64,000 nucleotides of DNA from positions 6,360-70,359 of IMG/VR virus record IMGVR_UViG_3300029568_000166; one strand, 5' to 3'. Below the pieces are notes generated by a model, which saw nothing but the letters and a program-made list of their open reading frames with translations, did no database searches and was not told the DNA's origin. The number at the start of each line of letters is the position of its first letter. Position 1 is the stretch's first letter. Below are positions 6,101 to 47,428 of this stretch, one piece after another. The position numbers and the translations under genes are program-made. This DNA comes from a virus.

Positions 6101-9100
6101 AGATCGAGCTTCTACAGCTGGAAAGACAAAACCAGCAGCTTAAACTTATGCAGCAAGTAAATCTAGAAGTAGAGTCATTGGTTAGTCAACTACAAAAAGC
6201 AAGAGCTAGTGTTACAAGGTTTGCTGTTGAATTAGAAGCTCAGGAGCAAGCTACACAAAATCAGGTTTCAAATGTTTCTGGAGCAGGAGGAGTTAACCAA
6301 TTCAGAAACGAAGCACTTGAGGTTTTGGAAAATCCTAGAGGTTATACTGATCGAGAGTTCGATGTTGCTGCTAGAAGAACATCTCAAGTTATAGGAGGGG
6401 ACGCAGGAAAACAAGTTGAAGAAGGCTTGAAGGGACAAAGAGTATTAGAACAAGAACTCCCGAAAATACTTCGTAATGTCACAGACATGGACAAAGCTAG
6501 TGAAGCAATAGAGAATCTTGATCTTGGTATCTCTGATAGCCTTGGTAACGAAATCAAGAAAAAGCTTATAGATCAATTAGAACTAAAAGTTGGAGAAGAC
6601 GGAGTAGGAGGAGCGGCTTTTGCAGATCTAGCGGATGATGTGCCAGGACTTACTGCATCAATGGAGATATTTAAAGAAAACAATGAACTTGCCAAAGAGG
6701 CGGTTAAAGCATTCGGTGATGCCGTAAACGCTTCCGCAGAGAGAGCAACCAAATGGGCTGACGCTGTAGATGCAGCTAGAGAAAGAGAGCTAGCGGGAGT
6801 CAAGAAAAGAATAGAAGGAGAAAACGCTATAGCAGATGCCCTTGGACAAAGAATTTCTCTTGAAGAGAAAGCAGGAACTTTCTTTGCAGAATTTAACAGT
6901 CTTAGTGGTCAAAATGCCACAAACATGGGCCAAGTCGATATTCAGTCCATTGTTGATCAACGAAACATAAACGCAGGCAGAATAGACGCTGCTGAAAGAG
7001 CCAGAAATGCAGCGGCTACTTCCGGAGACATAGAAGGCGTAACAGCATTAAATAAACAACTTGCAAGTCTAAAGAAAGAAGACCAAAATCTTGTTAAGTC
7101 TCTTGAGCTAGTAGCAAATAGCAACGACCTTCTGCAAGCTGCACTAAACAAATATCAGGAAAGGATACAACAAGAAGACAAGAAGATAGATTTTGCTGAA
7201 AGGCTCGCAACTGCTGATACTGGAGAACTAGCCAGAATCAATTCGGAAATGACAGCCTTGAATGTTGCTCTGGGTTCTGACGACAAGACACAGAAAAGAT
7301 TTTTCAGTAATGTTGATAATAGAAGAGATGCTCTAGCCGGTCTGAAGAATTTGGACTTCTTGGGATTAGACGGAGCTGAAACAGGACAGATAAGGGCTCA
7401 GACACAGCTTAGTGTCCTAGAAAACACTCCTGGAATGAAAAAATTCTTGGATATGCAGACTAAGGACATCTATGGTAAAGACACTACGCTAAGAGAAATT
7501 CTGGAAAGAAGAGCTAAGACTGGTGAGACACCAGAGACTGAAGCAGCTAGAGCAGCAATAGAACTACAACAAAAGGCTAATGAAAGTTTAGCAGATATAG
7601 ATAACCAAGTAGCTGATATTCTAGCCAGTGATATAAGCGACCCAATTGTAAAAGCAATTCAGGACATGAGAGATAGAATAGCAGGAGCTATTGTAACTAG
7701 CGATAGATCAGGGACAGGTGCTCCACCTGGTTCATCTACTGCCAGTACGACCTCTCCTACCTCTCCTACCTCTCCTACATCTCCTCGTTCTGATGGTTCT
7801 ACTGGTGGTGGTCCTGGGCTTAGAACCCTAGCTTTTGGTGCTTATGCAGCAGATCAGTTTGCTGGTGGTAGAGGTTCAGCCGCATTAAGACAAGCTGCTG
7901 GTGCTGCTTCGAGAGGTTATGGTAGAGCCAGAGCGGGTGGTGCTGGTATACGAGCAAGTCTGGGAAGAGGATTACGGGGTGGAGCGCAAAGCCTAACCAG
8001 AGGAGGAGCAGGCAGAGCGGCAAACGCAGTAGGTAGAAGGTTGCGTAATCTTAGAAGTAGAATACCTACGGCAAATCAAGCGGGACTTAGAGTCGGACAA
8101 TTTGCTGATGACGCTATTGCTAGAATTCCAGGGGCAGGAAGGCGAGCAGGAGAGATGGTTGGCAGAGCGAGAAGAGGCCTAACAAATCTAAGAGGAAGAA
8201 TTCCTACGGCAAGACAGGCAGGCGCAGGAGTCAGGCAAGGAGCGAAACTAGCTAGAGACACAGCAGTTAATACGGTTAGAGCCATCAGAAATAGTAGAAC
8301 AGGAGTGAACGCAGCATCAACACTGGCTAGAGGAGCAGGCGCAGCAAGAAATATTGCTAATGCTGGTAGACTTGCTGGAGGCGCATTAAATGTAGCAAGA
8401 GCTACTCCAGGTATGTTGGCGGCTAATACTGCATTAAGCGGTGTTACAAATGCTATAGAGTTCGCATACGATCCAGCCGCCTATAATGAAAAGATGTTAG
8501 ATAGAGTTCAGGCTGGAATGGATGAGATGTATGCCAAGGGAGAATATCAGTTTACTAGCTTAGGAGGAGCTCTGGATGGGTTAAGCGATCCGATAGGTAA
8601 GATAGTAGAAGGAGGCTACGCTCTTAAGGCCTTAGCGGATGATTATGCTAATCTTGCTCAGGCTGAAGCTCGATCAGAAGCTATGTCTCAAGATCTTTCT
8701 ATAGCTAGGGGGCAAGATGTTGCTTCTGAACTTGGTTTTAGCGGAGACGCAGCAATAAGTGGCTTAGATACAGGTATTCAAGAAAAGATTCAAGAAATAG
8801 CTAGACAAGAATCTAAGCTAAAAGAAATAGAAGCTCTCATAGCTTCTGGAGCAGGAAACGAAAAGGCAGCCGGTTCTATTTTAACAAATTCTCAAATGGC
8901 CGAGAATATTAAGAGAACCATTTCGCAATCAGAATCTGGCCTAAATGCCCTCATAGACGAAGCGGCCACAACACAAGGATGGTTGTGGGATAGTCTTGAT
9001 GAAAGAATGAGACAAGCAATCAAGGCTCAGGTTGGAAGCGCTATGCAACAGCAAAGACAACTGATGCAGCAGAGAGATCAAGACGGAACTAACGCAGCAA

Positions 9101-36528: not shown

Positions 36529-36933
36529 TTAAAACGCGACGGTCTCTTCAATAGATTCCGATTCTGGAGTAGAAGTATCTTCTGATGCCTTCTTTGCTCC
36601 GGGAGTTCCTTGTCCTTTAACAATAGGGGCAAAGTTGTTTACTCTAACCTTCATCGTAGAGTGCTTTACTCCGTCCTTCTCCCATGAATCATTTCGCAGA
36701 GAACCCTCTACCATAACAAGATCACCCTTCTTAAGAGTGTTAGAAACTGCTACAGCACCGGTGTCCCACGCTTCACAAACAATAAAAGAGGTAGTCTTAT
36801 CTCGTGTTCCATCGGCACGAGTAAACTCACGAGAAGTAGCAACCGTGAAATTTACTACCGCCGTCTTATTCTGACCCACAACACGAAGTTCAGGATCACG
36901 AGCCAAGTTACCACGCAAAACAACTAGATTCAT
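36529..36933 (-). CDS. ssb: Single-stranded DNA-binding protein
   Basis: MNLVVLRGNLARDPELR, VNFTVAT, KKGDLVMVEGSL, acidic tail ending in F. Confidence 0.95.
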   Translation of the reverse strand: MNLVVLRGNLARDPELRVVGQNKTAVVNFTVATSREFTRADGTRDKTTSFIVCEAWDTGAVAVSNTLKKGDLVMVEGSLRNDSWEKDGVKHSTMKVRVNNFAPIVKGQGTPGAKKASEDTSTPESESIEETVAF

Positions 36934-36990
36934 AAAAATCTCCTTTACTAAAATCCAAAACCAAACCCAGGAACACCCTGGACGTAATCT

Positions 36991-37019
36991 ATTATAGCCG
37001 GTTGGATCGGGTGTGTCAA
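36991..37019 (-). promoter_or_regulatory. Sigma70-type promoter TTGACA-N17-TATAAT for ssb
   Basis: Perfect consensus; the -35 box overlaps the dnaE-C stop codon. Confidence 0.85.
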
Positions 37020-38131
37020 GTCCGAGCGATGTAACTTTTTTCCACGATCAGACTATCCTTGCCTCGGGACCGATTTCCGGCCACGATGATAATATTGCCA
37101 TCAAATAAAATGTTCTTATATTCTCTGTATTGATCTGGAAAGAAAATCACAGACTCAACAGTTCCAGTGGTATCTCTAATAGTGACGAAAGCCATTTCTG
37201 CACCAGGATTTTTACCCTGCTTAGTTTTCACAATACCGATACGATCAATCTCTCCACCCAGAATAATCTTCTCTTTCTTGTCTTCTGTATTGAACTCTTT
37301 GCAAGTGGTATTACACATACTAATGTCGTACATATCAACTTTACCACAAGTAATAGCACAACCCAAAAGAGCATCTTCAGAATCTGCAATCCACTCTGGA
37401 CTATCCTCTAACGAATAGGGAGGCCTCTCAAGACTAGAGATAAGATCAGAAATAATAGCTTTTCTATTCTTATTAGCTTTCCCATTTTCTATCAGATACT
37501 CCAGGCTATCCTTCAGAGTTTCCTGTTTATTTTCTATAACAAACTTTAGTTCTTTCTTGGTGAGACTTGATACAACGCCGAACTCAAACATCATTAGATT
37601 TCTTGTTTTTCTCAGATAGGCCAACGCACCTGACTGCATCAAAGCCTTGGCACCAGTAGAGTTGATGTTAGGCAAAATCTTGAGCAGAACATCCGTCCAC
37701 TCGGCATTGTCTAAATCAAAATCTTCCACAAGTTTTATCAACTTATCAAATACTGATCCTCCAACTCCTTTAATGTCGGTAAGACCGAAATAGACCTTGT
37801 TATTTTTGAGTATAAAGTGACGGTTTAAGTTTCTTATGTCTGGAGGCCGAATGTCTATATTCATCTCTAAAGCGTTCTGAACCAACTCCTTGATCTCCAT
37901 CTGAGGATCAATCTTGTCCTTGGCAAATCTGAGATAACTAGCAAAAAATACTTTTGGGAAATGGGCTTTGGCGAATGCTGAAAGGTAGCCGTTGATAGCA
38001 TACGACACAGAGTGTGAGTTCGATGTTGCTATGCCATTTGCGTAAAAAAGATGTTCTGAACTGTTTACTTCAATGTCTTTTGTGGGTCTTATACCAACTT
38101 TACTAACTCTTCTAACTTTTGCTCCACGCAT
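37016..38131 (-). CDS. dnaE: DNA polymerase III alpha, C-terminal piece (fingers/HhH/OB) preceded by split-intein C fragment
   Basis: IntC ...HLFYANGIATSN is followed by SHSVSY, then YFGLTDIKGVG (HhH) and OB-fold MAFVTIRDTTGTVESVIF. AGGAG RBS present. Confidence 0.9.
   Translation of the reverse strand: MRGAKVRRVSKVGIRPTKDIEVNSSEHLFYANGIATSNSHSVSYAINGYLSAFAKAHFPKVFFASYLRFAKDKIDPQMEIKELVQNALEMNIDIRPPDIRNLNRHFILKNNKVYFGLTDIKGVGGSVFDKLIKLVEDFDLDNAEWTDVLLKILPNINSTGAKALMQSGALAYLRKTRNLMMFEFGVVSSLTKKELKFVIENKQETLKDSLEYLIENGKANKNRKAIISDLISSLERPPYSLEDSPEWIADSEDALLGCAITCGKVDMYDISMCNTTCKEFNTEDKKEKIILGGEIDRIGIVKTKQGKNPGAEMAFVTIRDTTGTVESVIFFPDQYREYKNILFDGNIIIVAGNRSRGKDSLIVEKSYIART
38018..38131 (-). mobile_element. 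Split intein C-fragment (IntC, 38 aa)
   Basis: MRGAKVRRVSKVGIRPTKDIEVNSSEHLFYANGIATSN: block F (DIEV...HLFYANG), terminal Asn, +1 Ser. Confidence 0.92.
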
Positions 38132-38979
38132 TCTGTGTCTCCTAAAATGTCGCTTTCCCAGAACCTTATTAGTTTGTATTTATTTTCTTCGCAAAACTTG
38201 TTCTTTTTGATGTCTCTGTAATAGTTTATTTTTTGCGACTTTGTTTTTGGCCCGTTTGGATAGATTTTTGGGTTACTGTGCCAGTAGTCGCCATCTACTT
38301 CTATTAGTATGTTAGCGTCTGTACAACAAAAGTCAAACGCCCAAGAACCGAGAACATACTCTTTTTTGTATCGTATTTTTTTCTTTTTGAGTATTCTTTC
38401 CATTGTTCTTGATGGTAGAGTATCTATCTGCGGAAAGTCGCCGTTTTTTATTCTTTCTAAAGTTTTTTGTCTCATGAGTTCTTTCGACTCTTCAGAATGC
38501 TTGTGTCCTGTATGCCCATGAACTTTTCTTTTTTTAGCAGAGTTGCTCTGTTTGAGTTTTGTTTCGTCGCTGATGTCTCTGCCAGTTTGTATCTCTGACA
38601 TTTTTTTGCCGTAGTCAGAGTTGGTTTTATTCACACCAAGGTTCCACGGCTTCTTTTTATACATTGGGTTTCCTGGTCCTTTTCTTTCTGTTTTTGCTTT
38701 TTTAGACCATTCAACTATTCCGGTGTTTCTCCCACAAGCAAACTTACTCCATCTAAAAACAGTTCCTTTTTTTACTACTCTCAACGCTTTTTGGCATTGC
38801 CCACAAGGGCAAACCGGACCCTGGCCAAAGTATTCTTCTTTAGTCATGTTATGTTGTTTTTTTAGATGGGATAAAAAATAGTCAGTTTTATAACAGCCAA
38901 GTTTCTTCTCTTCTTGACTTATTTCTTCTATTGTTTTTCCGCAGTGTCGGCAAACCGAAAAGTCCAGTGTTGTATCCAT
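38089..38979 (-). CDS. Free-standing Vsr-like/DUF559 (EDxHD-type) homing endonuclease with NUMOD3-like repeats
   Basis: FDFCCTDANILIEVDGDYWH catalytic motif; GHKHSEESKELM and DISDETKLKQS NUMOD3-like segments; N-terminal Cys/His clusters. Start taken at ATG 38979 (AGGAG RBS); 39009 is the alternative. Confidence 0.85.
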   Translation of the reverse strand: MDTTLDFSVCRHCGKTIEEISQEEKKLGCYKTDYFLSHLKKQHNMTKEEYFGQGPVCPCGQCQKALRVVKKGTVFRWSKFACGRNTGIVEWSKKAKTERKGPGNPMYKKKPWNLGVNKTNSDYGKKMSEIQTGRDISDETKLKQSNSAKKRKVHGHTGHKHSEESKELMRQKTLERIKNGDFPQIDTLPSRTMERILKKKKIRYKKEYVLGSWAFDFCCTDANILIEVDGDYWHSNPKIYPNGPKTKSQKINYYRDIKKNKFCEENKYKLIRFWESDILGDTECVEQKLEELVKLV

Positions 38980-39011
38980 TTGTATGTCTCCTATTGGAAT
39001 AGATGTCATAC

Positions 39012-39899
39012 TTATTCATACACCACTATCTCCATTTCTTTTGCTATTATTTCCCACAAAGGATACTTCTTCCCGTCTGTTGTCAAAAACTTATGGTCTA
39101 ATGTACATGTAATAGTAGCACCACCATCCAGTTCTATTTCAACAACCTCCTTTTCTCCTGTATCAATCACATCCAACACTTCAATAAACTCATCTCCATT
39201 GGCCGTGGGTCCAAGAACCTTGTCTCCAACCTTTATTTCTTCCATTGTTTTTAACCCGTCTGGAGTTTCTACAACAGTCGATACATCTAAACATTTATTG
39301 AAAGAATACCTTTGACTCTTCTCAATCCAGCCGAAGATTTCTTCTGCTTCTTCTTTGGTTACGATCTTGAGTTTAGTAGCGCCTTTGATAAACTTCTTCT
39401 TGAGTTTAGCCATCTCTTCTGGTTTCTTTTTACCAATAGCTTTTCTTAAGTTGTCTGCTTCTTGCAGATCAAAGCCGCCGATAACTTTAGCAATCTCCAT
39501 CGCCTGTTCCTGATATACCAACTCACCGAATGTAGAGTTGAGAATAGGTTCTAGTGCAGGATGGAAATAGCTGACGGACTCTTCTCCGTTCTTGCGGTCA
39601 ATGTAATGGTTTGTCACGCTCTTACCGTCTCGCACAGCCTCAAGACAACCTGGGCGAACGATAGCGATGAGAGCGGATAACTGTTCTATGTTCTCTGGCT
39701 TGAGACGCTTGGCGGTCTGTTTACCAAGCCTACTCTCTAACTGAAACACACCTTTTGTATTTCCGTCACTAATAAGATCCCAAGTTCTTTGACATTCAAG
39801 ACTGATGTTTTCTATTCTTGGTTGAAAATCAATCTTTGTAACGCCATTTTCTTCAGTAATAGGAAACTTACAACCGCAGGCATATGTAAAGTATTTCAT
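39012..39899 (-). CDS. dnaE: DNA polymerase III alpha, middle piece, ending in split-intein N fragment
   Basis: GVFQLES, ALIAIVRPG, LVYQEQ, ADNLRKAIGKKK, YSFNK, then CLDVST... intein. Confidence 0.92.
   Translation of the reverse strand: MKYFTYACGCKFPITEENGVTKIDFQPRIENISLECQRTWDLISDGNTKGVFQLESRLGKQTAKRLKPENIEQLSALIAIVRPGCLEAVRDGKSVTNHYIDRKNGEESVSYFHPALEPILNSTFGELVYQEQAMEIAKVIGGFDLQEADNLRKAIGKKKPEEMAKLKKKFIKGATKLKIVTKEEAEEIFGWIEKSQRYSFNKCLDVSTVVETPDGLKTMEEIKVGDKVLGPTANGDEFIEVLDVIDTGEKEVVEIELDGGATITCTLDHKFLTTDGKKYPLWEIIAKEMEIVVYE
39015..39293 (-). mobile_element. Split intein N-fragment (IntN, 93 aa)
   Basis: Starts CLDVSTVVETPDGLKTMEEIKVGDKV (block A) and contains ITCTLDHKF (block B TxxH); ends at the stop without blocks F/G. 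Confidence 0.93.
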
Positions 39900-40081
39900 T
39901 CCTTGTTTTCCAGTTTTGGCATATGCTGATCTCCTCCATCAACAATCTCAACAACATTTATAGAAATAGCATGTTTTCCAACAACAGTTTGCTCAACTTC
40001 GCGATTATATTTATCTAAGATTTTTTGCATTGTCTGGCAAAGTTTGTTGCAGTCCATATTTGCTGTTATAGGTATTATCAT
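39896..40081 (-). CDS. Hypothetical protein (61 aa)
   Basis: ATGA overlaps at both ends (with the thyX stop and with the dnaE-middle start). Confidence 0.6.
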   Translation of the reverse strand: MIIPITANMDCNKLCQTMQKILDKYNREVEQTVVGKHAISINVVEIVDGGDQHMPKLENKE

Positions 40082-40716
40082 TTGATTAGCCCAGATCTTT
40101 TCCATGTGTAAATAGTATGACGGAATGGCTGTCCTTCTATGCCATCTACTAAGTCTAGCATAGTTTGGGCAATATCTCTAATTTCTCTTTGTGCGTGTTC
40201 GCTATTTCTAAGTTTTTGAAAATTTGCAAAACTTCGCATATTGAAACTTACGTCTGCTTGTATCTGACTATTATATGACTTAAAGAACCTGGCTGATTCT
40301 TTTGCTCTTTTTCGTCCAACAGTACCTTCTATATCCGCTAGACATTCATGATAAAGGGAATTGCTTAATGCAGTAAACTCTTCTAATTTGATCTGCCATT
40401 TTATTGGCCAGTCGTTAGGAATATATGCTTTGTCTTCCTTAAGCTCTTTATAGCGAGCAGACTCGGCATTAAGACTACTAATACGATGCTTAAGTAAATG
40501 AATATGGCTGGCGATATCAGTATCAACAAGAAAATGCACCATAGCCTTCTCAAACGGTGTTTCATGTCCATTCTCCCATAGCATCTTAATGAGTTTAGGA
40601 ATCCTTTCTTTCTTTTCGTCCGTCAAATCTCGTGATGTGCTTGTCCATGCTGAACAGGCTATGGTTTCGTCCGAGCCATAATAACCCAATAGTTCTACTT
40701 TGTTTTTCATCCTCAT
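40078..40716 (-). CDS. thyX: FAD-dependent thymidylate synthase
   Basis: GHETPFE, KHRISSLNAESAR (ThyX motif, R->K at the first position), NMRSFANFQKLR...HAQREIR. Confidence 0.93.
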   Translation of the reverse strand: MRMKNKVELLGYYGSDETIACSAWTSTSRDLTDEKKERIPKLIKMLWENGHETPFEKAMVHFLVDTDIASHIHLLKHRISSLNAESARYKELKEDKAYIPNDWPIKWQIKLEEFTALSNSLYHECLADIEGTVGRKRAKESARFFKSYNSQIQADVSFNMRSFANFQKLRNSEHAQREIRDIAQTMLDLVDGIEGQPFRHTIYTWKRSGLIK

Positions 40717-40726
40717 CCTCTGTTCC

Positions 40727-40770
40727 TAAAAGAAAAGGCCAGCGCCCTACCCTATAGTAGAGCGCCAGCC
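40727..40770 (-). terminator. Intrinsic terminator after DUF1559 gene
   Basis: - strand GGCTGGCGCTCTAC-TATAGG-GTAGGGCGCTGGCC followed by TTTTCTTTT. Confidence 0.75.
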
Positions 40771-40782
40771 CTGTATTGTCAA
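40754..40782 (-). promoter_or_regulatory. Sigma70-type promoter TTGACA-N17-TACTAT for thyX operon
   Basis: Perfect -35 box, 17-nt spacer; the -10 box lies inside the terminator hairpin. Confidence 0.7.
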
Positions 40783-40785
40783 GTC

Positions 40786-41769
40786 CTATTCCTGAACGAT
40801 TTCGCCACCACTTCTGGTAATCATACCCGCAAATACTCTAAGATCAACATCTTCGTTGATATATGATGTTGAACCATCTGTTCTAACAACATTCATTCCA
40901 CCAGGATGCCAACTTAGCGCCTCTCCATTATTTGTAGCATTAAATGGTAGCCCCATGTTCCTTGCAGCACCCTTATCGCCGTTTTGATCAATCGGATGCA
41001 ACTTAAATGGTCCAAGACTATCTGCCCATCCAAGACACTGATTGATAGCATCTGGTACAGCAATCTTCTGTGTGGTCTTAATCCACGTTGGGCGACTAGC
41101 ACATTCTACAATAAGAAGTGTCTTGCTTGTTCCATCACGAAACTGACCCATTCTTGTAATCTGATCCTTAATTAATGCGCCATCTGCTTCTGGCCCCTTG
41201 TTGGCGTATGGATCTGGATCAAGAACCTTATTCTTTACGCCCGTAAATACCTCATAGTCTGTGCGACCAAATGGTGAGGGTGGACTAAGTGCTGGAGCAG
41301 TTGAGTCTGAGTCTCTGCTTGGTCCATCAGGATAACTCGTCCATTCTGATCCATCGTACACATTAGATGGGCACTGAAAAACCTTAACCTGCTGTTGTGC
41401 AATAAAAAGATTTGGGCCTTCCCACCAATGAAGATTCTTATCATAGGCGTCTGCAAGCGCTGATTCTTCCATGTATGGTAGAAGGTCTACTCTCCACGAT
41501 CTTTCTGTTCTTGCCTTATTATCTGATGGGGCTATTGGCGTAACACTTGGATCAATAGTATCAATTGTCCAACAGGCTGCCGGAAACTTTTGAGTGCCAT
41601 TTTCAATGTTGTGTGCGGCCAATCCAAACTGTCTCATGTTGCTCATGCAATTTGCTCGTCTTGCTGCTTCCCGTGCAGATTGTACTGCTGGAAGGAGAAG
41701 ACCAACTAGAACACCAATAATAGCAATAACAACAAGAAGTTCTACCAGAGTAAATCCTTTTCTTTTCAT
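40786..41769 (-). CDS. DUF1559 family prepilin-type N-terminal cleavage/methylation protein (planctomycete type, 327 aa)
   Basis: MKRKG-FTLVELLVVIAIIGVLVGLLLPAVQSAREAARRANCMSNMRQFGLA and C-terminal HPGGMNVVRTDGS (H-X9-DG motif). Confidence 0.95.
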   Translation of the reverse strand: MKRKGFTLVELLVVIAIIGVLVGLLLPAVQSAREAARRANCMSNMRQFGLAAHNIENGTQKFPAACWTIDTIDPSVTPIAPSDNKARTERSWRVDLLPYMEESALADAYDKNLHWWEGPNLFIAQQQVKVFQCPSNVYDGSEWTSYPDGPSRDSDSTAPALSPPSPFGRTDYEVFTGVKNKVLDPDPYANKGPEADGALIKDQITRMGQFRDGTSKTLLIVECASRPTWIKTTQKIAVPDAINQCLGWADSLGPFKLHPIDQNGDKGAARNMGLPFNATNNGEALSWHPGGMNVVRTDGSTSYINEDVDLRVFAGMITRSGGEIVQE

Positions 41770-41815
41770 CTTTTTTTCCTTTTTGGTAGGGTAAAATTCG
41801 TAGCCTGTAGACCTT

Positions 41816-41844
41816 ATTATACCCAACCGGCAGGAAGAGAGCAA
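41816..41844 (-). promoter_or_regulatory. Sigma70-type promoter TTGCTC-N17-TATAAT for DUF1559 gene
   Basis: Perfect -10 box, partial -35 box, 17-nt spacer, intergenic. Confidence 0.6.
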
Positions 41845-41866
41845 AGGGTTTTATGTTAGAATTGCG

Positions 41867-43141
41867 TTAAGACATGATTTCGTTGATTGGTTTTCCACCA
41901 TCCACGATTTTCACAGGGCGATCGCCAGGAGCCATAAGAGCCTTATTATAATCAATACCTAAAAGGTCATAGATAGTAGCAGCCCAATGATGAACCTCTA
42001 CTGGATTATCTGCTGGTTCTGAACCTGTTGCATCGCTCTTGCCATAGAATAGACCTCTTTTAATGCCACCCCCAGCCATAACAGTGCTATACACTTTAGG
42101 CCAATGATCTCTACCGCTAGTAGGATTGATCTTTGGAGTTCTTCCAAATTCTGTTCCCACAATAACGAGAGTAGAGTCAAGCATTCCTCTGTCGTCAAGG
42201 TCATTGATTAGTGCTCCAAAGGCTCGGTCAAATTGGGGTAAGTTTCTTTCCATTTGTCGGGCAATACCATCGTGATGATCCCACCCTCCGTAAGTCATCG
42301 TCACAAAGCGGGTTCCTGCTTCAACCAATCTGCGAGAAAGCAGCATTCTCATTCCTGCGGCGTTCTTGCCATACCGCTCCTTGGTTTGTTCATCCTCTTT
42401 GTTTAGGTCAAACGCTTCAATAGCCTCGGTTGAACTCATGAGATCAAAAGCGTTTTCATAAAAAGTATCAAGTGACGTAAGCTTATCTGAAGACTGTTCG
42501 CTTCCGAATTTGTCATTGACAATCTCAAGCATCTTCTTTCTTTGATCAAATCTTTGAAGGCTGATGTTGTCTGGTAGTCGCAAGTCTCTAACTCTGAAAT
42601 TTGGGCTTTCAGGATTACTACCGAGGCTAAAAGAGCTATAAGAGGAAGAAAGATAGCCAGTACCAGCAAATTCATTAGCAACTTGCGGAACTGAGATGTA
42701 AGGTGGTAAATTATTTCGCACCCCCAATTCATGCGACATTACAGCACCGAAACTGGGATACTGTAAGGCTGGGCTCGGTTTGTAGCCTGTCATCATGTTG
42801 TTGACGCCACGCTCATGGGCAGTTTCAGAGTGGGTCATGGACCGAATCACTGTAATTTTATCAGAAACACTTGCTGAATGGGGAAGGTATTGGCTAAATA
42901 CTTCACCGGGAATTTTGGTTTTCACGGTTCCTAATGGTCCGCGATATTCTACAGGAGCGAGAGGTTTTGGTCCAAAACTTTCCTGATGGCTCATTCCTCC
43001 CGGTAGGAAGATATAGATAACACTTTGTGCCTTGGCATTAGGATTGAGAGCATCTTCAGCCTTCAACTTTAGATAGTTAGGCAGAGTAAGACCACCCAAT
43101 CCTGCAACGCTTCCGACAAGTAGTTTTCTTCTATTTATCAT
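41867..43141 (-). CDS. DUF1501 family protein with Tat-like signal (planctomycete type)
   Basis: MINRRKLL twin-Arg leader, IYIFLPGGMSHQESF, GWDHH, LDSTLVIVGTEFGRTPKIN...GRDHWP, MAGGGIKRG. Confidence 0.93.
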   Translation of the reverse strand: MINRRKLLVGSVAGLGGLTLPNYLKLKAEDALNPNAKAQSVIYIFLPGGMSHQESFGPKPLAPVEYRGPLGTVKTKIPGEVFSQYLPHSASVSDKITVIRSMTHSETAHERGVNNMMTGYKPSPALQYPSFGAVMSHELGVRNNLPPYISVPQVANEFAGTGYLSSSYSSFSLGSNPESPNFRVRDLRLPDNISLQRFDQRKKMLEIVNDKFGSEQSSDKLTSLDTFYENAFDLMSSTEAIEAFDLNKEDEQTKERYGKNAAGMRMLLSRRLVEAGTRFVTMTYGGWDHHDGIARQMERNLPQFDRAFGALINDLDDRGMLDSTLVIVGTEFGRTPKINPTSGRDHWPKVYSTVMAGGGIKRGLFYGKSDATGSEPADNPVEVHHWAATIYDLLGIDYNKALMAPGDRPVKIVDGGKPINEIMS

Positions 43142-43824
43142 TTTTTGAACGAGCCTTTAAACTTGACTTTTGATGCCATGTTTCTGTGCAGTTTCAGAAA
43201 TCGGATCATGATTTCTGCGGTATCCTCCACATCCTTAATAGCATCGTGAGCACCATCTTTACTAATACCAAAATACTCTCTCAAGTTATCTAGTGAATAA
43301 CTCTTGAGTTCGTTGTTGTGGCTAAACCAGTAGAACACCAGATTGATCACATCAACTACATCTCTAGGATAGAATACACTACTTGTGCCTTCTTTATTCA
43401 CATTCTTGTTCTTCACACTGAGTCTATTCACAATGGGAAGATCAAACCTATAGATATTATACCCCGCAGCGATAGGAGCAGAAAATTGGCTCTTTCTGCT
43501 GGTCCTGCTGTGGTATTTATCCAGATAATCAACAAACATCTTCCAACCAACACTCTGCTTGGGGTATTTTGTCCATTCTGCATAAACATCTTCTTTAGCG
43601 CAACCCTTAACCCTAGCATGAAAATCCAGAATATCGGTCTTGTACTCATACTCTGGGTCTTTTTCCATTACCTCTGGCTTAAAGTTGCACTGAAACTGTG
43701 AATTAGGGATGATCTCCAAATTGATAGGATCAACCATTACAGCAGCAAGTTGTACTGGACTACATTCTGCTGGATTGCTGCCATCTGTCTCAAAATCAAA
43801 TACGCAAATTTTGTTATAGTTCAT
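43138..43824 (-). CDS. DEDDh 3'-5' exonuclease (Pol III epsilon-like)
   Basis: ExoI VFDFETDG, ExoII AGYNIYRFDL, ExoIII HDAIKDV. Confidence 0.9.
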   Translation of the reverse strand: MNYNKICVFDFETDGSNPAECSPVQLAAVMVDPINLEIIPNSQFQCNFKPEVMEKDPEYEYKTDILDFHARVKGCAKEDVYAEWTKYPKQSVGWKMFVDYLDKYHSRTSRKSQFSAPIAAGYNIYRFDLPIVNRLSVKNKNVNKEGTSSVFYPRDVVDVINLVFYWFSHNNELKSYSLDNLREYFGISKDGAHDAIKDVEDTAEIMIRFLKLHRNMASKVKFKGSFKK

Positions 43825-43829
43825 TATTT

Positions 43830-44012
43830 TTATTCCTCAACTTGTACTTGTTCACCTTCTCTAAGGCCTATCTTGTTTTTTGGATTATTGGTTTCTGTTG
43901 CGTTAACAAACTTGCAGCAACTAATTTTAACTTTACTGGTTTTAGTAAAAGTTTTGTCCTTATAAACAAAAGAATCTCCAACACTAAGACTCCCATAAGT
44001 AACATTTTTCAT
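43830..44012 (-). CDS. Hypothetical protein (60 aa)
   Basis: ATGA-coupled to the dnaE-N stop. Confidence 0.6.
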   Translation of the reverse strand: MKNVTYGSLSVGDSFVYKDKTFTKTSKVKISCCKFVNATETNNPKNKIGLREGEQVQVEE

Positions 44013-45868
44013 TTTTCTACTCCTTGTCTAAGTATTTCTGAAATATTCATAACCTTATCTAACATAGCGATGCCAAGGATATCAAATTTGATAACTCCAA
44101 TAGTTTCCAAATCCTGCATTTCCATACCCGCAATCATTTGTTTGTTTCTTGTGTCGTAGACCATAGGGCAGGTTTCGGCCAAGGCCTCGCTACTGATCGC
44201 AATTCCAGCCGCATGTTTGCTCTGGTTTGACTTGGTTCCTTCTAATCTAATAGCCTGCTCAAAGCGTTTGGCAAGTGGACCCTGAATTTTTCCATCATCG
44301 TCCAGATGGCACCACTCCTTGAGTTTATCTCCAACATTCTCAAGAGCCCAACGAATAATACTCGCTTCTCCGGTGTCTTCTCGCATTTGTTGTAGTTCAT
44401 CAGCGATTTTCGCTTCGTCTGGAATATTCTTGGTAATCTTATTCATCTCTTCAAAACTAATGTTTCCATAAGCTCTGAACACATCTTTTAGTGCTCCGCG
44501 ACCTTTGATCGTGTTGAAAGTGATCATTTGAGAGACTTTATCTGCTCCGTACCTGTTTTTGATATATTCGATGATCTCTTCTCTTTTATCAATAGGAACA
44601 TCCACATCAATATCTGGCATAGAAATATGCTCAGCAGTATTACGACCAGCATTGTAAAATCTATCAAATAGAAGGCTATATTTAATAGGATCAATACTAG
44701 TAATACCAATAAGATAGGAGACCAAGCATCCTGCAGCAGATCCTCTTCCTGGTCCTGGCAGCCATTTTTCTTCTCTGACATGGTTTACAATGTCCTGAAC
44801 TATAAGGAAATAACTAGACAGATCCGCACCCTGTAATACATCTAATTCGTATTTAACACGATCAGTATAAGTGTTGTATAGATTTTTGTCCACTTTATCG
44901 TGTATTTTTTCTCTCCACCCATTACGGCAGAGTTGACGAAGATATTCATCTGGATTTTCGCCGCCAGGACATTGGAAAGGAGGAAGTTTTGGCTTGCTCG
45001 CAATATCAAAATCCTCAATCAAACTGTTGACCAGATTAGTATTCTCAATGTGTTCTTCTTTGTGGATTTCCCTTATCTCTTCTTGAGAAAGAATATGAAA
45101 GTTGTTGGAACTAAAGAAGCATTCAACCGGAACCTTGTCTCCAACGCTGAGTTTGCGGGTGATTTCCGGCATAGTAGTTTTGAGGTTGTTGCAGAGCAGG
45201 ATTCTCTGATCGTCTGCGTCTTCACGACGAGCATAATGAGCGTCTGGGGTACAGATAACCTTTACACCCATTTTGTGAGCGAGAGATTCTATAGCGTCTG
45301 TAAGAGGTTTTTGTATGGGATTATTCTCTAGATCCATCAACTGCGCCTCAAGAAACACATGATCTTTGCCGAACATTTCAACGAGTTGGGCAACCAGATC
45401 TTCTCCGCTGCCAGCTACACGATCCTCCTCAACCATTTTGTTAGCCAGATTACTACCAAGATGCCCTGTAATACAGATAAGGTCTTCACAGAACGGCGCA
45501 ATCCTGTCCAGATCAAGTCGTGGTTTATGATAAAAATATTCTGGTTTATTTGACTCTGATACGAGCTTGATCAGATGCTGCCAACCATTATAGTTTTTGG
45601 CCAGAACCAGCATGTGAGAATTGGTGTTATCTTTCTCTTTTATTGATGCGTCTTTTTCACAAATATATAGCTCGCAACCCAGAATAGGTTTGATATTATT
45701 TTTCCTCATAGTCTGATGAAACTGCACATGACCAGCGATATTTCCGTGGTCTGTCAGGGCACAAGCGGAAGTCTCAATTTCTAGGCATCTTTTAGCAATT
45801 TGTTTAGGTTGAGATAGTCCGTCTAACAGACTATAATGACTATGACAATGTAATGGTATATATTGCAT
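44009..45868 (-). CDS. dnaE: DNA polymerase III alpha, N-terminal piece (PHP domain plus palm)
   Basis: HCHSHYSLLDG, ALTDHG, GCE, TPDAHY (PHP); GPGRGSAAGCLVSY, LLFDRF, MPDIDVD, HAAG, KFDILG. Ends soon after the third catalytic Asp. Confidence 0.95.
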   Translation of the reverse strand: MQYIPLHCHSHYSLLDGLSQPKQIAKRCLEIETSACALTDHGNIAGHVQFHQTMRKNNIKPILGCELYICEKDASIKEKDNTNSHMLVLAKNYNGWQHLIKLVSESNKPEYFYHKPRLDLDRIAPFCEDLICITGHLGSNLANKMVEEDRVAGSGEDLVAQLVEMFGKDHVFLEAQLMDLENNPIQKPLTDAIESLAHKMGVKVICTPDAHYARREDADDQRILLCNNLKTTMPEITRKLSVGDKVPVECFFSSNNFHILSQEEIREIHKEEHIENTNLVNSLIEDFDIASKPKLPPFQCPGGENPDEYLRQLCRNGWREKIHDKVDKNLYNTYTDRVKYELDVLQGADLSSYFLIVQDIVNHVREEKWLPGPGRGSAAGCLVSYLIGITSIDPIKYSLLFDRFYNAGRNTAEHISMPDIDVDVPIDKREEIIEYIKNRYGADKVSQMITFNTIKGRGALKDVFRAYGNISFEEMNKITKNIPDEAKIADELQQMREDTGEASIIRWALENVGDKLKEWCHLDDDGKIQGPLAKRFEQAIRLEGTKSNQSKHAAGIAISSEALAETCPMVYDTRNKQMIAGMEMQDLETIGVIKFDILGIAMLDKVMNISEILRQGVEK

Positions 45869-45919
45869 TTAATCCTTCCAAAAGACGACACAGAGGGATT
45901 TGTGTCCTGGCCGTACACT

Positions 45920-45948
45920 ATAATAGCCCAATCGAAGGTGCGTGTCAA
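45920..45948 (-). promoter_or_regulatory. Sigma70-type promoter TTGACA-N17-TATTAT for dnaE-N operon
   Basis: Perfect -35 box, 17-nt spacer, near-consensus -10 box. Confidence 0.8.
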
Positions 45949-45986
45949 AAAAAAAGAGGCGTTCCTCAAAAAAGAAGAACACCTCT
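45947..45986 (-). terminator. Intrinsic terminator after 104-aa gene
   Basis: - strand AGAGGTGTTCTTC-TTTTTT-GAGGAACGCCTCT followed by a T-run that continues into the TTGACA box. Confidence 0.8.
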
Positions 45987-46014
45987 AATTTTAGAGCAGT
46001 TTTAAAAACTGGAA

Positions 46015-46329
46015 TTATTCAACGTTAAGATCATTTACGTTGTAAGCTAGATTAAATCTAAACGTATAATCTCTTCTGATTGTGTCTGCGTCTAGAATTC
46101 TTGATGTTGATGTTGTTGCCCATGAAGCATCACCAGTAGCGGCAATACCAGATGAAACTGATTCAACTAGAGAAAAACCGATTTCTACACCGCTAGCAGT
46201 TGTTGAGTTGCCAAAGCTTCTTAGTGTTTCTACTGGGATAACAAGAGCGTCTGTAGCGCAGGAAATGGTGGCACCATTTGCTTGAATAGCTGCTCCTGTA
46301 AAGATGTCTGTTAATGATGGACGTGCCAT
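46015..46329 (-). CDS. Hypothetical protein (104 aa), small Ala/Thr/Ser-rich, possibly structural
   Basis: AAGGAG RBS; own terminator; composition unlike the flanking replication genes. Confidence 0.7.
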   Translation of the reverse strand: MARPSLTDIFTGAAIQANGATISCATDALVIPVETLRSFGNSTTASGVEIGFSLVESVSSGIAATGDASWATTSTSRILDADTIRRDYTFRFNLAYNVNDLNVE

Positions 46330-46405
46330 AAAAATTCTCCTTTATTTTTCTTGTAAAAACTAGTTTTATTTAGGGTTATAACCTTGCTTATTAATATACA
46401 CCAAA

Positions 46406-47428
46406 TTACTCTACAGAACCAGGAGCTTTGTATTTTCCAACACTAAACCCAGGAATCTTGTATTTCTCAACTGTTTGATCCATACCAATAAATTCTACCG
46501 AATGTTTTATCTCCTCACACATGGTCATCGGGCAACCGTGAGGTGTTCTTTGATTATCTCTGTATTCTATTGCTGCGTCTGGGAAGTAATTCTTGCCAAA
46601 ATGGCAGAGTTTGCTACATTTCCAGGTTTTACTGAGAAGTGGACGCCTACAATTTTTAATTCTTTCAAATTTTTTCCTAAGCATATCCTCTGTTTCTTGC
46701 AACTGACTCTTATCATAACACATACTGAAAATTCCACCATCATTGATGAAATAGATACTTACAATAATGTGGTCAATTTCAGGATAGAGCCTACTTGCTG
46801 CATAATGATACATTCTGAGTTGAGGGTCTTTTTCCAGTTTACCGAATGTCTTCTCAGTCCCGGTAGCCCAGTCTAATCTTTTTCCTGTCTTGTAGTCAAT
46901 AATTTCTAGGGTATTTTCATTGGGCTGAGTAATCAGATCAATAGTGCCTTTTATGCTCAAATAGCCTTCCATATCGTCGCTGTATTTATAGTAGGCCCAA
47001 GGCTTCTCTATGGCAAGGTCAAATTTTTGTTCTGGCTGAACTATATTCTGGTTGCGAGGATCAAAGTTTCCACCCTGAATAGAGAGTGTTTTATCTACCC
47101 ATTTGTGACAGTGTTTGAGGTCCAACGATCTCCAATCAAGATTTGGACTATGAGAACTATAGTATTCATAAACTTTTTCTGTTATTTTTTCTACATCGTG
47201 GTTTATGGTATTGATCTCGCCAACAATATCGTCGGTGATACTAATTTCGCCTTTAGAGCAAGCTACAGACACATCAGCCAGTATTTCCATTACTTTATGA
47301 ACAACGGTGCCTTTTGCTGCTGCTTTACCAGCTTCACCACGAATACCCAGGCCGTATTCAATAAAATATTGTTGTTCACAAAGACTATGAGTATTATAGC
47401 TACTGCTTCTTAGGTAGGTAATTATCAT
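46406..47428 (-). CDS. PD-(D/E)xK nuclease (PDDEXK_1, RecB/Cas4-like exonuclease)
   Basis: KGTVVHKVME, IKGTIDLI, IIDYKTG, QLRMY; N- and C-terminal Cys residues (LCEQQY; CSKLC). Confidence 0.85.
   Translation of the reverse strand: MIITYLRSSSYNTHSLCEQQYFIEYGLGIRGEAGKAAAKGTVVHKVMEILADVSVACSKGEISITDDIVGEINTINHDVEKITEKVYEYYSSHSPNLDWRSLDLKHCHKWVDKTLSIQGGNFDPRNQNIVQPEQKFDLAIEKPWAYYKYSDDMEGYLSIKGTIDLITQPNENTLEIIDYKTGKRLDWATGTEKTFGKLEKDPQLRMYHYAASRLYPEIDHIIVSIYFINDGGIFSMCYDKSQLQETEDMLRKKFERIKNCRRPLLSKTWKCSKLCHFGKNYFPDAAIEYRDNQRTPHGCPMTMCEEIKHSVEFIGMDQTVEKYKIPGFSVGKYKAPGSVE

Follow-up and report, generated by a model that had tools for sequence, protein, structure and literature searches.

A DNA polymerase gene that is broken twice lies within a 64,000-nucleotide stretch of viral DNA (positions 6,360 to 70,359 of IMG/VR virus record IMGVR_UViG_3300029568_000166), which we refer to in full as the window. 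The locus encodes a predicted C-family DNA polymerase of the DnaE type, i.e., the alpha subunit of DNA polymerase III (Pol III), in three genes. The first break falls at the boundary between the palm and the fingers, carries no intein, and, judging from the relatives described below, is common to a very large group of environmental phages rather than peculiar to this one. The explanation that we favor, and that we consider likely, is an old, intein-free fission of dnaE into an N-terminal half (N-half) and a C-terminal half (C-half) that dock non-covalently, with the C-half of this phage being itself restored by trans-splicing across the second break.

A dnaE gene in three pieces

The source record is 74 kb long and has an estimated completeness of 54%. 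From about 26 kb onward, the genes of the window are oriented along the minus strand, and the replication module runs in the order RecA, DnaB, Toprim primase, deoxynucleoside monophosphate (dNMP) kinase, PD-(D/E)XK nuclease, a 104-amino-acid (aa) open reading frame (ORF), the split dnaE region, and SSB. The ORFs and Pfam domains of the dnaE region, all on the minus strand, define three polymerase pieces:

44009-45868, minus strand: dnaE-N (piece 1), 619 aa; PHP, palm, thumb, and the first ~20 residues of the fingers
39012-39899, minus strand: piece 2, 295 aa; leader, fingers (PF17657), and Hint/intein N-terminal part
37016-38131, minus strand: piece 3, 371 aa; intein C-terminal part, HHH_6 (PF14579), and OB (PF01336)

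In Pfam, piece 1 matches the PHP domain (PF02811, residues 6-176, 2.6e-38) and the whole of the PF07733 profile (residues 308-599, profile positions 1-260/260, 4.3e-72). It holds all three catalytic aspartates (in PDIDVD and KFDILG), and D419, D421, and D596 are invariant. The gene stops 20 residues past KFDILG, with the C-terminal end ...LDKVMNISEILRQGVEK*. Piece 2 begins MKYFTYACGCKF and matches positions 21-164 of the 166 positions of the PF17657 fingers profile. Taken in order, pieces 1, 2, and 3 tile PHROG 405 without loss (positions 42-614, 621-793, and 792-1071, respectively), and they are also colinear with the alpha subunits of E. coli and Taq. Palm and fingers are each present in one copy, with no second such domain elsewhere in the record; no beta-clamp gene was found in the record, which is 54% complete. 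A DnaE-type polymerase has its catalytic core on one polypeptide; here, three ORFs with stops share it. No GenBank phage gave a megablast match to the region, and at the protein level, identity to the nearest records does not exceed 33%.

An earlier note on this DNA, made from its letters alone, had described dnaE as lying in three genes, with piece 1 (PHP and palm, including the three catalytic aspartates) stopping soon after KFDILG and piece 2 resuming the fingers behind a unique leader. The ORFs, the Pfam domains, and the PHROG 405 tiling all agree with this description, and the leader indeed lacks a counterpart in solved DnaE structures.

The first break lies between palm and fingers and lacks an intein

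Residue 608 of piece 1 aligns with residue 630 of Taq alpha, and residue 30 of piece 2 aligns with residue 646 of Taq alpha and residue 586 of its E. coli counterpart. In P0008, a relative with a contiguous gene, the fingers profile starts two residues past the end of the palm profile; since fingers directly succeed palm in this protein, the last ~20 residues of piece 1 (LDKVMNISEILRQGVEK) correspond to the start of the fingers. About 11 residues of the piece 1 tail and about 28 residues of the piece 2 leader have no counterpart in Taq or E. coli DnaE.

No Hint or intein domain was found at the C terminus of piece 1 or at the N terminus of piece 2 by a Pfam scan that does detect the intein of the second break. 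Likewise, Rfam returned no intron or ribozyme family over the 9.7 kb from 36800 to 46500, even at permissive E-values. The earlier note was therefore right that the first break has no intein, and also that six genes, spanning 4.1 kb, separate piece 1 from piece 2. The cut ends do not carry the N- and C-terminal intein parts that define a split-intein "fractured gene," and none of the six intervening ORFs matches an HNH, GIY-YIG, LAGLIDADG, or Vsr homing endonuclease. Nor is the arrangement that of a PolC-type polymerase, in which the exonuclease lies inside the PHP domain: the exonuclease of this locus is a separate 228-aa ORF downstream of the palm gene.

The break is conserved among related phages

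A scan of IMG/VR identified 116 contigs encoding a relative of piece 1, of which we fetched 80 (63-79% identity). In the fetched loci, the N-half match ends at query residue 613-619 and the ORF stops at that point; the exception is L077, in which the match ends at residue 555 because it runs off the contig. Of the 68 loci long enough to include the C-half, 64 have a gap of 826-895 nucleotides (nt) before the next polymerase gene, which sets the family norm at ~0.86 kb. Such a standard gap contains a 56-72 aa ORF and an exonuclease gene, represented in the window by the following:

43830-44012, minus strand: CC mini-protein, 60 aa; its start overlaps the dnaE-N stop (ATGA)
43138-43824, minus strand: DnaQ-like DEDDh 3'-5' exonuclease, 228 aa; PF00929 (RNase_T), 1.8e-10

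The C-half start directly adjoins or overlaps the exonuclease stop in 65 of the 68 loci, and the C-half of the relatives measures ~535-545 aa, with pieces 2 and 3 fused. In most relatives, then, the usual layout reads as a tight, translationally coupled operon composed of N-half, CC mini-protein, exonuclease, and C-half.

We widened the comparison by searching 1.84 billion cluster representatives exhaustively with HMMER. Among the best 150 (50%-identity clusters, at 38-82% identity), 143 end within -8 to +28 residues of the piece 1 C terminus, with a median of 0; six of the other seven continue into the fingers, and the last carries a cpYpsA/SLOG domain as a fusion. A free-standing C-half of ~535-545 aa is present in at least 120 clusters, out of 3355 hits. 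The order N-half, exonuclease, C-half persists even in representatives that are 44% and 38% identical, in which five to ten genes are scattered among these three. Pairwise omega ranges from 0.036 to 0.093 for the N-half and from 0.045 to 0.112 for the C-half, values indicating that purifying selection acts strongly on each half; comparisons of the window with its nearest relatives show saturated synonymous sites. The earlier note had called for a survey of related phages for the same breakpoint, and both the 80 loci and the 143 of 150 representatives show it to be conserved.

The C-half leader and the CC mini-protein

The part of piece 2 that precedes the intein is as follows:

39294-39899, minus strand: piece 2 N-extein, residues 1-202; 28-residue leader, then the first part of the fingers, ending YSFNK

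In an alignment of 32 C-half N termini, C8, G9, C10, F12, C36, T39, and W40 are invariant. The CGC motif occurs within the first 30 residues in 118 of 120 C-half clusters, and also in the distant loci L087 and L088. In contrast, all three leader cysteines are absent at the junction of the contiguous relatives in which it was read (P0025, P0032, and P0103). The conservation of the CGC leader and its restriction to split forms support the earlier suggestion that it might be an assembly or metal site. AlphaFold2 (AF2) models the leader, within residues 1-192 of piece 2, as a three-stranded sheet with a predicted local distance difference test (pLDDT) score of 70-81.

The mini-protein contains an invariant Cys-Cys pair (C32 and C33), and nearly all related loci in which the gap is of standard length carry an equivalent ORF of 56-72 aa, located after the N-half and before the exonuclease gene. 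AF2 predicts a five-stranded beta fold (barrel) with a pLDDT of 95.9. A Foldseek comparison of this model with the PDB gave no match at E <= 0.001, the weak likeness being to the SH3-like domain I of eIF5A/EF-P (E >= 0.06). Because its hidden Markov model (HMM) finds nothing significant in the distant split loci, the contiguous loci, or the cultured phage phiT1 (see below), the mini-protein is established for the closer clade only. It may be a small subunit of the polymerase. More speculatively, the leader and the mini-protein might share a composite metal site. In its full form, which we consider unlikely, the CxC...C leader and the Cys-Cys loop of the mini-protein would make up a Cys4-type zinc clasp, and the active enzyme would have four chains (N-half, mini-protein, exonuclease, and C-half). 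If so, assembly would depend on metal or redox state, which would be a new way of building a C-family polymerase.

Proposed assembly of the two halves

Our proposal is that an old fission split dnaE at the palm/fingers boundary with no intein involved. The N-half (PHP, palm, thumb, and first fingers helix) and the C-half (fingers, HhH, and OB) would be translated separately and, once docked, would rebuild one active site, to which the N-half would contribute the catalytic aspartates and the C-half the fingers. The likely docking element combines the C-terminal helix of the N-half and the invariant CxC...C leader with which the C-half begins, and the DnaQ-like exonuclease encoded between the halves would act as the proofreading subunit. 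In this phage, the C-half would have been broken again by a split intein and a free-standing Vsr-like homing endonuclease, its parts being joined by protein trans-splicing, while host-like DUF1501 and DUF1559 genes, thyX, and a small ORF would have been inserted between the exonuclease gene and the C-half. An assembly from separate polypeptides is proposed because the first break is real, intein-free, and evolutionarily stable. That the N-half joins the C-half non-covalently is strongly indicated by the strict co-occurrence and order of the halves, their equal selective constraint, their complementary domains, and the coupling of their translation in most relatives.

A complex of piece 1 with residues 1-192 of piece 2 was predicted with zinc riding along and family alignments supplied (one prediction and three controls). 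The interaction prediction score from aligned errors (ipSAE) was 0.49, versus 0.01 for the best of the three controls; three runs share at least 89% of contacts, and the partner pLDDT is at least 82. The mark applied to such predictions is reached by 58 of 80 solved complexes and by 2 of 110 mismatched pairs, but at an ipSAE of 0.60 or under, it is reached by only 7 of the 80 solved complexes, along with both of the passing mismatches. The earlier note had proposed such a complex prediction; the verdict of the tool was "weak support."

Several observations weigh against a non-covalent heterodimer. The case for it is a comparative one, with a single and weak complex prediction, and the pass may show likeness rather than binding because structures of contiguous DnaE have been solved. 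When residues 1-192 of piece 2 are modeled alone, the confidence of AF2 is poor overall (mean pLDDT, 62.8), with low values outside the leader and the last helices. No Cys or His was found that is conserved in split N-halves only and could complete a four-ligand metal site with the leader. Moreover, the split is not obligatory for function, since two small clades of close relatives are contiguous, and the expression of the halves may be uncoupled in the window, unlike in the relatives, because a terminator-like hairpin lies between the gene blocks. Finally, P0128 (762 aa) has its N-half fused at the C terminus to cpYpsA/SLOG, a hint that the N-half may also function in a different setting. As a separate observation, two cpYpsA genes lie directly upstream of the N-half in L087 (L087:5019-6001); a recurrent link between this polymerase and SLOG-family proteins is suggested.

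These points bear on whether the halves form one enzyme at all. The N-half could work alone, as a minimal polymerase or a PHP-type exonuclease, leaving the C-half as a DNA- or clamp-binding accessory. The three catalytic aspartates and an apparently intact PHP domain are indeed all in the N-half, the relative with the cpYpsA/SLOG fusion has no free C terminus at this position, and the halves may occupy different transcription units in the window. Yet both halves, in the same order, are found in every locus that extends far enough, their omega values are similarly low, and they tile a single polymerase profile without loss. In addition, the deoxynucleoside triphosphate (dNTP)-binding residues of C-family polymerases are supplied by the fingers domain, including the FNKSH motif that is the intein target here. 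Independent functions for the two halves are, in our judgment, quite improbable.

Even less likely, and by a wide margin, is a covalent joining of the halves by some unrecognized mechanism, such as a cryptic mini-intein, RNA splicing, or translational bypass. The residues without a Taq or E. coli counterpart at the cut ends (~11 in piece 1 and ~28 in piece 2) speak in its favor. However, the scan that recovers the second-break intein detects no Hint/intein domain at the first junction, and the piece 1 tail is far too short for the N-terminal part of an intein. Joining by an intron or ribozyme was rejected on the basis of the empty Rfam search, and the halves are separated, depending on the lineage, by anything from two to at least ten protein-coding genes that are independent and conserved. 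As for an assembly or sequencing artefact or a decaying pseudogene, frameshifts can yield fragmented DnaE calls, as noted for bacterial genomes (PMC3919608). In this case, however, the same stop recurs in >100 contigs that were assembled independently from many different samples, as well as in the genome of an isolate, the intervening genes are intact, and strong purifying selection acts on both halves. The conservation of stop position, gap layout, and omega across relatives excludes both the artefact, a possibility that the earlier note had raised, and the pseudogene, so this explanation is refuted and keeps practically no probability.

Probable fission and re-fusion, and cultured phages

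We built a FastTree phylogeny of 140 N-halves; its backbone is poorly supported, and its rooting is provisional. The six contiguous forms fall into two small, well-supported clades nested within the split radiation, which implies at least three changes of state. They share the synteny of the replication module, and in one of them, L090, the exonuclease gene lies outside dnaE. The simplest reading of this pattern is an old fission followed by occasional re-fusion.

The same break position is found in a cultured phage. Rossellomorea phage phiT1 (an isolate and a Bacillota phage; L083, PV767480.1, 4986-8268) has its DnaE in two genes: gp20 ends ...KFDLLGLKTLKVIQNSVDQINQGVAV, gp18 starts just before GVFQLES, and a 50-aa ORF (gp19) lies between them. 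Both gp20 and gp18 are annotated as "DNA polymerase III subunit alpha." While phiT1 resembles the window in the position of the break and in the small intervening ORF, it is only 33% identical and lacks an exonuclease gene between the halves, a CGC leader, and cysteines in the small ORF. In Bacillus phage PS1 (L084), a relative of phiT1, the gene is contiguous and encodes 1029 aa. Given that phiT1 is split at 33% identity and PS1 is contiguous, the break may have arisen more than once at this site.

Two other candidates for a split relative were rejected. Among the top hits, which were human-gut "Bacteriophage sp." records, the contig checked has a contiguous 1157-aa DnaE. Bacillus phage vB_BceM_WH1 (L082, LC597490.1, 3923-8121) has three coding sequences, separated by gaps of ~400-700 nt at other positions; the fragmentation of its dnaE is probably of the intron type.

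The second break carries a split intein

Pieces 2 and 3 are separated by the parts of an intein and a gene for an endonuclease:

39012-39293, minus strand: split-intein N-terminal part, 93 aa (CLDVST..., TLDH block) followed by a stop codon; Hint/Intein_splicing hits
38089-39009, minus strand: free-standing Vsr-like (DUF559) homing endonuclease, 306 aa; PF04480, 2.8e-8; PHROG 9084, "homing endonuclease"
38018-38131, minus strand: split-intein C-terminal part, 38 aa (...GIATSN); overlaps, at its 5' end, with the 3' end of the endonuclease gene
37016-38017, minus strand: piece 3 C-extein, 333 aa; rest of the fingers (SHSVSYA...), HhH, and OB

The N-terminal part has PDB matches to the DnaE and gp41-1 inteins, and the intein hallmarks are all present (Cys1, the TLDH block, the terminal Asn, and the +1 Ser). 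Splicing would restore YSFNKSHSVSYA (YSFNK joined to SHSVSYA), which is identical to the sequence of the contiguous, intein-free L007, and the C-extein of piece 3 is colinear with the contiguous C-halves of relatives. The intein parts and the exact match at the L007 junction bear out the earlier claim of a split intein here, and pieces 2 and 3 are thus predicted to be ligated by trans-splicing. By its sequence features, the second break is of the published "fractured gene" type, all the defining elements of which are present.

The intein sits after FNK, at about E. coli K758; the cyanobacterial DnaE intein site, which we take to lie before CFNK, would be a few residues upstream. Metagenomic DnaE intein sites have been found to differ from the cyanobacterial site, and split inteins and Vsr-like endonucleases have already been reported together at three metagenomic DnaE loci (Dassa et al. 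2009, PMC2677866). In our set, the intein is rare: outside the window, a C-half fractured at this same site, between FNK and SH, is seen only in L072 (L072:12411-15343), which has a Ser1 intein and a different endonuclease of 305 aa. An apparent intein is located at another fingers site in L027 (L027:12738-14105). Inteins appear to have invaded this gene repeatedly.

Comparison with known systems

To our knowledge, C-family replicases outside the split inteins are treated as single-chain catalytic subunits. Bacterial alpha is a single chain, the E. coli Pol III core consists of alpha, epsilon, and theta, and PolC has its exonuclease inserted in the PHP domain. Like the E. coli core, the window has a DnaE-type polymerase whose DEDDh proofreading exonuclease comes from a gene of its own; a small third subunit may be another shared feature, although a parallel between the mini-protein and theta finds no support in fold or sequence. 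The window differs from both the E. coli core and PolC in that the exonuclease is a separate gene between two alpha genes.

A Pol III alpha catalytic subunit encoded in two genes and reassembled after translation is known from cyanobacteria, namely, the split DnaE with the Ssp/Npu DnaE split intein (Wu et al. 1998 and Caspi et al. 2003, as cited in PMC2677866). There, a split intein in the fingers region makes a covalent join near FNKSH and the two genes are far apart, whereas the first break in the window is ~180 residues upstream and intein-free, with the halves in one locus around the exonuclease gene. In the "fractured genes" of Dassa et al. (2009; PMC2677866), which involve Vsr-like or GIY-YIG endonucleases, the order of intein-N, Vsr-like gene, and intein-C is that of our second break, but at the first break both the intein halves and the homing endonuclease are missing. 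The one intein-less case in that study, an SbcD-like gene, is still split by a Vsr-like ORF (PMC2677866).

The closest mechanistic analogue for the piece 1 tail and the CGC leader is NrdA of Aeromonas phage Aeh1, an essential phage enzyme that is split into two genes by the mobE endonuclease; it reassembles non-covalently through tails that exist only because of the break and that its activity requires (Crona et al. 2010, PMC3045599). By analogy with these tails, the piece 1 tail and the C-half leader may mediate assembly. NrdA is a different enzyme, with a mobile endonuclease between its parts and a split confined to one phage; in contrast, the DnaE halves have an exonuclease partner and a mini-protein between them, and their split is ancient and widespread. 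Replicative polymerases made of N and C subunits that assemble without splicing are also known in family B, including the PhiKZ polymerase, in which DNAP-N and DNAP-C form a stable 1:1 complex (PMC13648687), and the T4-like gp43 that is split in Aeromonas phage 25 (as cited in PMC2677866). These belong to family B rather than C, have another break point, and contain no exonuclease gene nested between the halves.

In the literature searched, which included DnaE and viral replication-protein surveys and left out subscription journals, we found no description of an intein-free split DnaE. This split is what appears to be new here; naturally split phage polymerases, reassembled fragmented genes, and the type of the second break were already known. 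What the comparison adds is a natural intein-free break between palm and fingers that is stable across a very large radiation of environmental phages and is accompanied by a Cys-rich leader and a nested exonuclease gene. It clearly illustrates how a fission in the gene of an essential enzyme can persist for a long time and apparently be followed by re-fusions, and it provides a natural two-piece DnaE for studies of active-site assembly and a ready split site for engineering. In this regard, the window may combine two ways of living with a broken gene in one enzyme, non-covalent assembly and predicted protein trans-splicing. There is also a warning for annotation: paired "DNA polymerase III alpha" fragments in phage contigs should not be taken for pseudogenes.

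Genes between the halves

The exonuclease gene sits between the halves in every related locus examined, and its product matches PHROG 192, "DNA polymerase exonuclease subunit" (3e-20); it is most likely the proofreading subunit. Between this gene and piece 2, the window has four additional genes:

41867-43141, minus strand: DUF1501 protein, 424 aa; PF07394, 2e-114; its start overlaps the exonuclease stop
40786-41844, minus strand: DUF1559/prepilin-type N-methyl protein, 352 aa; PF07596 and PF07963
40078-40716, minus strand: ThyX, flavin-dependent thymidylate synthase, 212 aa; PF02511, 1.6e-32
39896-40105, minus strand: 69-aa ORF without a recognized family; overlaps with the end of thyX and, at its own stop, with the start of piece 2

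DUF1501 has no match in any of the 80 related loci, and DUF1559 is found, among the same loci, only in the nearest relatives (L002, L003, L005, L007, and L008). L007 also carries thyX between the halves, together with a weak homologue of the 69-aa ORF. The six-gene bridge of 4.1 kb is a lineage-specific expansion that adds four genes to the family norm. The 4-kb bridge on which the earlier note had remarked is present in the window, but it is not a feature of the family, whose norm is ~0.86 kb with the mini-protein gene and the exonuclease gene. The DUF1501 and DUF1559 families are typical of Planctomycetota, and their presence between the halves suggests this phylum as the host. In the distant loci L088 (L088:8386-8955) and L087 (L087:7844-10839), extra genes, among them one for a uracil-DNA glycosylase and many small ORFs, lie between the N-half and the exonuclease or C-half. 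The region between the halves seems to be a hot spot for gene insertion.

Transcription signals

Candidate transcription signals around the polymerase genes are the following:

40782-40754, minus strand: promoter-like site, TTGACA-17-TACTAT, 10/12 consensus matches
40772-40735, minus strand: terminator-like hairpin, 17-bp stem and T-run, in the intergenic stretch 40735-40782; it overlaps the promoter-like site
45920-45948, minus strand: promoter-like site, TTGACA-17-TATTAT, 11/12, upstream of dnaE-N; a consensus match only
45955-45986, minus strand: terminator-like hairpin preceding the dnaE-N promoter-like site

The earlier note had assigned piece 2 a promoter of its own at 40754-40782. This claim did not survive: promoter-like sites in the region number 21, versus 22.3 expected in shuffled sequence, so the match is at chance level, and it is further weakened by the terminator-like hairpin that overlaps it. 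If this hairpin terminates transcription, the halves would lie in separate transcription units in the window, unlike in the relatives. The terminator-then-promoter pair upstream of piece 1 looks better than the site at 40782-40754. Farther downstream, a sigma-70-like promoter match of 12/12 overlaps the piece 3 stop (36991-37019, minus strand), followed by a short terminator-like hairpin (36965-36983, minus strand) just upstream of the SSB gene (36529-36933).

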